A stretch of DNA of 43,115 nt from Candidatus Omnitrophota bacterium (lineage in GTDB: Bacteria > Omnitrophota > Gorgyraeia > 2-01-FULL-45-10), in contig JAPLMF010000026.1 in assembly GCA_026387155.1 (NCBI GenBank), forward strand, positions 1-43,115, read 5' to 3'. Shown piece by piece: positions 21,252-21,298 of the stretch. Numbering within the stretch: the first letter of the stretch is position 1; each line of letters opens with the position of its first letter. A model generated the notes under the pieces. It saw nothing but the letters and a program-made list of their open reading frames with translations. It had not been told where the DNA came from and did no database searches. A program made the position numbers and the translations under genes.

Positions 21252-21298
21252 GACGCCCTTGCCTTCGGCACCCGCAAAGTCAGGGTCTTACCAAATCC
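19450..21298 (-). other. Divergent SecA-type ATPase motor (NBD1, PPXD-like insert, NBD2, start of the helical scaffold), interrupted by a frame break at 21264-21287
   Basis: Each motif is given against E. coli SecA as I remember it:
- MLMGFGKTL (21281-21298, previous ORF frame) vs MRTGEGKTL.
- GKGVLVATKSDDLAKRDA vs GKGVHVVTVNDYLAQRDA.
- YFVLFDEADDPLVYQLMTPFIISG (DEAD at about 20940-20957) vs [23 protein letters not shown].
- [34 protein letters not shown] vs [36 protein letters not shown].
- AITIVTNRGARGVDVKL vs AVTIATNMAGRGTDIVL.
- DKQFRRRLVRRPGDTGAWRAYWSIEDKIF vs [31 protein letters not shown].
- LLDNAFSRYLSTMNRAQYDI vs LDSLWKEHLAAMDYLRQGI. Confidence 0.8.

Follow-up and report, generated by a model that had tools for sequence, protein, structure and literature searches.

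The open reading frames 26938..21167 and 21287..13146, on the minus strand of the window (the whole stretch of 43,115 nucleotides analysed here, contig JAPLMF010000026.1 of a Candidatus Omnitrophota assembly), are two pieces of one giant Omnitrophota-type membrane protein gene. They separate within the SecA-like motor of the encoded protein, at a place where some 40-52 nt appear to be missing. Our favoured reading, to which we assign a probability of roughly 0.6, is that the locus is one giant gene, that these nucleotides are missing from the contig and that the break is a local assembly error. As to the nature of the lesion taken by itself, namely a missing segment within a single gene rather than a programmed site, we are highly confident. 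The features at and around the break are as follows.

21167..26938, minus strand: fragment A, annotated as a 1,923-aa protein with start ATG 26938; its authentic coding part runs from this ATG to about 21269, and 21268-21167 is an out-of-frame tail with a stop
13146..21287, minus strand: fragment B, in frame c; the annotation has it as a 2,701-aa protein starting at TTG 21251 (P0097, the window's own protein), and it encodes the remainder of NBD1 along with PPXD and NBD2, a helical region, a TM cluster, and low-complexity repeats rich in K/A/E and in P
21284..21298, minus strand: Walker A GFGKT codons (GGA TTT GGT AAG ACC) in frame a, aligned with GFGKT of the relatives and GEGKT of canonical SecA
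21269..21281, minus strand: junction, 13 nt GACTTTGCGGGTG, reading (L)TLRV in frame a and DFAG in frame c
20403..21367, minus strand: SecA_DEAD (PF07517) match, crossing the junction
20940-20957, minus strand: Walker B FDEADD
20529-20786, minus strand: SecA_PP_bind (PF01043), inserted in NBD1, 44.4 bits
20034..20318, minus strand: NBD2, PF21090 P-loop_SecA, 34.5 bits
20049-20075, minus strand: motif TNRGARGVD, in the downstream part of the NBD2 region
19923-19961, minus strand: arginine-finger-like FRRRLVRRPGDTG

The frame break is real in the sequence, as the original prediction had described it. The 1,923-aa frame ends in ...KGKMYQMLMGFGKTLTL-RVPKARASWLQRRATTWQRGTLELPDRLKASLAAP and a stop (last residues ...APELVKGKMYQMLMGFGKTLTLRVPKARASWLQRRATTWQRGTLELPDRLKASLAAP), such that ...MGFGKTLTLRV is followed by a junk tail. 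Frame c, displaced by -1/+2, has its last stop, a TAA, at 21290-21288 and is open from 21287 (DPDFAGAEGKGVLVATKSDDLAKRDA..., in a fuller reading DPDFAGAEGKGVLVATKSDDLAKRDARAAGQVESKFGRTVGFVGEENGEHVGYVYN...) down to 13146. Frame a continues after GFGKT with L-T-L-R-V (21283-21269), the valine being GTG 21271-21269, whereas frame c reads GAC TTT GCG GGT GCC GAA GGC AAG GGC GTC over 21281-21252; the short CCC, TTT and GGG runs are likewise present in the break region. The codon positions agree with a break between Walker A and the GKGV strand. The annotated TTG start of ORF2 at 21251 sits within the NBD1 beta-strand VLVAT. Much farther along fragment B, downstream of its TM cluster, positions 17095-17690 hold K/A/E-rich low-complexity repeats with an 18-nt period (AAEKKAAEEQKAAAEK...) and a Pro/Ala-rich linker.

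Do the two frames encode a single motor? In Pfam searches, SecA_DEAD (gathering score 24.6 bits) matched ORF2 alone with 52.8 bits over profile positions 123-285. The original prediction had offered two ways of joining the frames, and both extended the match to profile positions 77-285: addition of one T (GKTLTFAGAEGKGV) raised the score to 79.4 bits, and deletion of the near-repeat AAGGC (GKTLTLRVPKGV) to 74.3 bits. A gain of about 26 bits on fusing is far above chance, and both pieces are one domain. The same profile crosses both the GKTL and the GKGV...KRDA segments, which settles the concern that these might belong to different domains. The downstream motor motifs are intact (Walker B FDEADD, GASGT and the arginine-finger region), and the preprotein-binding and NBD2 matches (cut-offs 23.5 bits for PF01043 and 27 bits for PF21090) align to the corresponding regions of 3JUX. 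SecA structures in the PDB match the window at E of about 1e-29 to 1e-32, with 25-29% identity. Unlike the window, where a Pfam search at E <= 1 returned no match to the scaffold/wing domain (SecA_SW, PF07516) or to the C-terminal PF02810, every canonical SecA match carries both scaffold/wing and C-terminal tail. By simple hydropathy, TM clusters flank the motor at fusion residues 1427-1729 and 2606-2907, and they do likewise in the related loci L001-L003. The predicted architecture is a divergent SecA-like ATPase, composed of NBD1 with an inserted preprotein-binding domain followed by NBD2 and lacking the scaffold/wing, that is placed amid clusters of TM helices.

Relatives of this gene pass the break site without interruption. 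About ten of them, at 34-60% identity and mostly from Omnitrophota MAGs, have a single uninterrupted frame there: L001, L002, L004, L088, L096, L097, L100 and L109 as DNA, and P0098-P0100 as proteins. An exhaustive representative search returned P0098-P0100 at 34-41% identity. A GTDB genome scan yielded L001, L003 and L004, which are Candidatus Omnitrophota MAGs, and L002, which is labelled Clostridia. L088, L096, L097, L100, L105 and L109 were recovered from JGI metagenomes with a degenerate Walker-A DNA pattern, six matches of which are family loci while the majority are unrelated. Closest to the window gene are genes of Omnitrophota MAGs, whose single ORFs exceed 3,600-4,960 codons. Among loci with sufficient flanking DNA, the ORF spanning Walker A has at least 4,956 codons in L001 and at least 4,964 in L002, and the frame stays open across Walker A for 2,085 codons upstream in L096 and 3,775 codons downstream in L088. 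Nearest to the window is L096, to which it is 60% identical in the N-terminal 584 aa and 52% identical in the motor. Fragments A and B align by BLAST colinearly to the single ORFs of these relatives, with residues 1813-1890 of fragment A falling on the region before Walker A, and the two ORFs are therefore one gene. The earlier view of two halves of one SecA-like motor gene is thus borne out by the rise from 52.8 to 79.4 bits and by single ORFs of relatives that cover both halves.

Other searches delimit this family. An initial word-indexed search for homologues picked up nothing but canonical SecA (25-29% identity) and overlooked the giant family. A scan of JGI metagenomes with six window-specific peptides found no relative, near-identical DNA was absent from the phage and plasmid collections, and exact-protein matches to ORF1, ORF2 and the AcrB gene are not on record in other assemblies, these proteins being singletons. 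For the motor as for the N-terminal domain, the great majority of the nearest relatives are MAG proteins named 'Candidatus Omnitrophota/Omnitrophica'. In L003 (JADGBR010000028.1) the motor frame starts only about 336 codons upstream, at a frame break of its own; this break, at 9170-9365, separates an N-terminal-domain ORF from the ORF of the motor and lies some 300 codons ahead of Walker A. Since L003 is broken elsewhere than the window, breaks of this gene family in MAGs fall at differing, non-conserved sites.

The N-terminal part of the gene and its surroundings have counterparts in the same lineage. The first ~560 aa of fragment A (residues 1-563, 25250-26938) form a conserved domain without a Pfam model, for which we found 61 homologues at up to 70% identity, almost all in Candidatus Omnitrophica/Omnitrophota MAGs. 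These homologues are usually 'partial' proteins at contig ends. Around 23566 (ORF1 residue 1125) there is a lytic-transglycosylase/lysozyme-like motif, EHESMGG...TGLGQIQ, with a weak Pfam match to Phage_lysozyme2 (E = 0.089); such a motif would agree with the degradation of cell walls that has been proposed as a function of giant Omnitrophota proteins. The order OEP, membrane-fusion protein, AcrB, AcrB and giant-gene N-terminus at 27224-36838 is syntenic with the Omnitrophota genome CP070780.1 (L110, 982-12996), a pseudo-chromosome in which a 100-N scaffold gap truncates the homologous giant gene. The nearest relative, L096, shows no synteny with the window.

Aligned to its relatives, the joined motor of the window is too short, and it is short precisely at the junction. 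The relatives' consensus reads GFGKTL(T/A)LR(V/L)AAxxL...(N/G)(F/Y)xx..GKGV, and individual sequences around Walker A are GFGKTLTLRVAGYLLTNNKDKTKNYTTAQGKGTLVAT in P0099/L109, GFGKTLALRVAAHMLASERNFKTAEGKGVLVCT in L001, GFGKTLTLRLAAYLLAKEKGFIAANKKDVIVCT in L096 and GFGKTLTFRLAAYLLTRNTGKYNYTAKNNKGVLVST in L003/P0098. From GKT to GKGV the window has about 7 residues under any repair, split over two frames, against 20-24 in the closest relatives and 13 in canonical SecA, of which 93 of 96 sequences share one and the same span from GxGKT to GxGV. If the distance is taken from GxGKT to the RD motif, there are 29 residues in the window, counted from the fusion sequence, 35 in canonical SecA and 42-46 in the closest relatives; leaving out nine spurious 21-residue pattern matches, no homologue has fewer than 34. 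Frame a of the window agrees with the relatives through LRV (five of five positions match P0099), and frame c agrees from AEGKGV onwards, possibly already from DF, whose aromatic residue is conserved. In BLAST, V1890 is invariably the last residue of fragment A to be matched, and the matches of fragment B set in at D3/F4, leaving 9-13 residues of the subject unmatched. In a joint alignment all three candidate repairs fall 6 residues short of canonical SecA and 13-17 short of the relatives, and phmmer against T. maritima SecA (3JUX) places a 6-residue gap in GKTLAATMPIYLNALIGKGV.

The contig appears to lack 9-17 codons and one further base (about 40-52 nt, 3n+1) at ~21269-21281, a conclusion that is well supported by alignments to P0098-P0100, L001-L004, L088, L096, L097, L100 and L109. 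In the protein, the missing stretch would correspond to the C-terminal portion of the helix behind the P-loop together with a family-specific loop (A-A/G-x-x-L-...-N/G-F/Y-x-x). Its exact sequence and length are estimates, because no relative above 60-70% identity turned up in any collection searched. The core of P-loop NTPases includes this helix, and one of about five residues is incompatible with their fold. Neither one-base repair would therefore yield a working ATPase.

The break at 21269 is not the only lesion on this contig. We list the others here.

13140..13154, minus strand: 7-nt exact tandem duplication (AAGTTCT AAGTTCT on the coding strand; Tandem Repeats Finder), creating the stop of ORF2
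3..13168, minus strand: fragments C-G, abutting or overlapping open frames 13168-9797, 9918-9475, 9557-6633, 6645-5644 and 5657-3
9396..9670, minus strand: 145-nt exact tandem duplication, 1.9 copies (Tandem Repeats Finder), not a multiple of 3
30070..30204, minus strand: 68-nt imperfect tandem copy (x2), splitting an AcrB-like gene; 82% matches by Tandem Repeats Finder, 55/68 by direct comparison

On the minus strand, the frames 26938-21170 and 21287-13149 and the five frames of fragments C-G form a chain of seven fragments over about 27 kb, with zero intergenic space and no in-frame stops. Upstream of its first possible start, frame C stays open for 101 codons. Removing one copy of the 7-nt duplication fuses fragments B and C (13168..9797) into 3,828 codons, and collapsing the 145-nt copy merges two frames into 1,047 codons. 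The latter duplication lies among imperfect YYPSGNLKSVTYATSD-type repeats with a related copy at 9748-9855, and another switch of frame, at 9797-9918, falls where the sequence differs by 31 nt from the sister repeat. At 6633-6645 and 5644-5657 the frames overlap by just 12-13 nt, with no start codon nearby; these overlaps are probably further breaks of the same giant gene. The last frame, 5657..3, has at least 1,885 codons and reaches the end of the contig. Fragments C-G probably continue the giant gene, which then runs off the contig; their continuity with ORF2 is drawn from the 7-nt and 145-nt collapses and from frame geometry only, because against the relatives they showed no homology at E <= 1e-5 and no Pfam domains. 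The original prediction had put the fused polypeptide at about 4,600 aa. This is an underestimate, because the stop of ORF2 is itself made by the 7-nt duplication; the real gene is probably much longer, with at least 8,970 codons up to the contig end that cuts it.

The third of these tandem copies lies in a different gene. The neighbouring AcrB-like gene is split into 30462..30112 (116 aa) and 30091..27224 (955 aa) on the minus strand, and the Pfam profile ACR_tran matches the first piece at profile positions 3-104 and the second with its remainder. Collapsing the 68-nt copy restores a gene of 1,056 codons, a normal length. The two copies differ at 13 of 68 bases, and both encode EGESTVVLSFEPGINM(D/E)FAALD, 22 residues that are alike save for one D/E. 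A duplication that destroys the frame cannot hold both of its copies under amino-acid selection, and the two copies show the pattern of two alleles from related genotypes placed in tandem. The adjacent AcrB paralogue was considered as the source of the copy and discarded, its sequence at this place being different. The 68-nt lesion is therefore an assembly chimera in which two haplotypes have been stitched together.

How might the break in the giant gene have come about? We envision a contig that was put together from two or more closely related genotypes and in which short stretches were, at the joins, either duplicated (7, 68 and 145 nt) or dropped (the break at 21269). The gene would be intact in the organism and encode one polypeptide of at least ~9,000 aa. 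The break at 21269 would accordingly be a join error in which sequence was dropped instead of repeated. It speaks against this that the lesion at 21269 is a loss whereas the three clearly diagnosable ones are tandem copies, so that their common cause is inferred. There is precedent for this scenario: local assembly errors have been found to split giant Omnitrophota genes into neighbouring ORFs, and in one case two adjacent giant ORFs became a single gene of 74,983 aa once corrected (West-Roberts et al., bioRxiv 10.1101/2023.11.21.568195).

Alternatively, and as the main rival, the organism itself may recently have lost the ~40-52 nt, one conceivable route being slipped-strand mispairing at short direct repeats (GACTTTGCGGGTG). 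Such a deletion would have removed the P-loop helix and shifted the frame, and the giant gene, or at least its motor, would be a young pseudogene with the duplications as further decay. Several observations lend themselves to this possibility, which we nevertheless hold to be less likely than an assembly error. The 13 nt of the junction can be read in either frame, as expected between direct repeats, and they fit a real slipped-strand deletion at least as well as a de Bruijn-graph error; given that the sense in both frames has one conserved aromatic residue as its basis, a deletion between short direct repeats is no more than a possibility here. Exact tandem duplications of 7 and 145 nt can be real mutations too, the same giant gene holds several other lesions, giant genes are costly and plausibly dispensable, and the contig has been deposited and annotated with these ORFs. 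What weighs against a real deletion is, first, that the 68-nt AcrB copy cannot be a real evolving duplication, so that assembly error is demonstrably present on this contig. Second, there are six or seven frame-breaking indels and yet not one in-frame stop in ~27 kb, with motor motifs conserved, whereas ordinary substitution-to-indel ratios would lead one to expect several nonsense mutations. Third, splits of this kind are assembly errors in the literature (bioRxiv 10.1101/2023.11.21.568195).

A more sweeping form of decay, in which all lesions are real, strikes us as improbable. It would have a giant gene, presumably related to predation, in the course of being dismantled by small tandem duplications and by a repeat-mediated deletion that kills the motor. 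A more exotic version, covered by the same low estimate, has an N-terminal part of 1,923 aa with membrane and lysozyme-like regions and a motor-less C-terminal part made separately.

Still less probable is the explanation put forward by the original prediction, a single-base homopolymer indel, arising as a sequencing error or as a mutation, in a gene with a natively short linker (GKTLTFAGAEGKGV or GKTLTLRVPKGV) and about 4,600 codons. The two frames do stand in a -1/+2 relation near short CCC, TTT and GGG runs, and both fusions exceed the Pfam threshold. Frame a is, however, authentic through LRV (GTG 21271-21269), which lies past the TTT at which the addition of a T would switch frames. This repair consequently throws away the conserved LRV, identical in P0099/L109 and near-identical in others, while the AAGGC repair breaks the conserved E/Q-G-K-G. 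Neither delivers the ungapped P-loop region that had been anticipated: both remain 6 residues short of every canonical SecA examined and 13-17 short of the closest relatives. The resulting linker of ~7 residues is shorter than the 13 of canonical SecA (invariant in 93/96) and the 20-24 of the family, a post-P-loop helix of ~5 residues misfits the NTPase fold and leaves the 6-residue gap against 3JUX, and the end of ORF2 is itself an artefact of the 7-nt duplication.

We regard as negligible the prospect of a functional split or recoding, be it a programmed -1 frameshift, transcriptional slippage or a split ATPase reassembled from separate polypeptides with ORF2 starting at TTG 21251, for which one may cite that TTG, the purine-rich AAGG/AGGG upstream of it and the thousands of open codons in both ORFs: frame a of the overlap (AAG ACC CTG ACT TTG CGG GTG CCG AAG) is free of X XXY YYZ heptamers, a stretch of 121 nt at and beyond the site shows no stimulatory RNA fold (MFE -34 kcal/mol, where shuffled sequences average -35.2, z = 0.36), neither promoter-like nor terminator-like sites were matched, none of about ten relatives has the break, any joined product still lacks 9-17 conserved residues and is not colinear with its homologues, and the TTG lies inside an NBD1 beta-strand, which leaves ORF2 without Walker A. 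A programmed -1 frameshift was rejected on these grounds, as was an internal promoter or terminator.

The message is mainly a caution: one giant Omnitrophota gene has been annotated in pieces, as proteins of 1,923 and 2,701 aa and, probably, several more downstream of them. The one-base repairs are unfit for protein models, in which the P-loop helix would stay missing. Beyond this, the locus adds a giant SecA-domain member whose nearest relatives are just 45-60% identical, and it brings with it the ~560-aa N-terminal domain that has no Pfam model and a conserved RND-efflux neighbourhood. Should the lesions be real, they would record the decay of a giant gene, which would be of modest interest and not unprecedented.

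How does the locus compare with known systems? With programmed -1 sites such as those of dnaX and of IS3-family transposases it shares two long overlapping -1 frames within one functional gene; unlike these, it has no slippery heptamer, downstream structure or conservation, and its product is not colinear with homologues. With canonical SecA (T. maritima 3JUX/3DIN, B. subtilis 1M6N), at 25-29% identity, it has in common Walker A GxGKT, the strand GKGVxVxT, DxLAxRDA, a DEAD-like Walker B, the inserted PPXD, NBD2 and the arginine-finger region. It differs from canonical SecA in having neither the helical scaffold/wing nor the C-terminal zinc-binding tail and in being embedded in a giant multi-TM protein. 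Moreover, its family carries an insertion of 7-11 residues between the P-loop helix and strand 2, and in the contig this whole segment is gone.

The closest counterparts are the giant Omnitrophota membrane proteins with divergent SecA_DEAD and preprotein-binding domains and no scaffold/wing (West-Roberts et al. 2023, bioRxiv 10.1101/2023.11.21.568195), among whose kind a 20-protein PF07517 architecture cluster has also been described (bioRxiv 10.64898/2026.06.07.730766). Their SecA-like module has been proposed, without experiments, to aid export of the giant protein itself (bioRxiv 10.1101/2023.11.21.568195). Unlike these proteins, the window gene is broken into at least two and probably seven frames, has no detected dockerin or glycosyl-hydrolase domains and neighbours an RND efflux operon instead of type II secretion genes; its known length of at least ~8,970 codons, ended by the contig end, contrasts with extremes of more than 30,000 aa. 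Like them, it combines SecA_DEAD, PP_bind and NBD2 without a scaffold/wing and has TM clusters on both sides of the motor. Judged by sequence, the window gene appears to be a moderately divergent new member of the known giant SecA-domain proteins of Omnitrophota.
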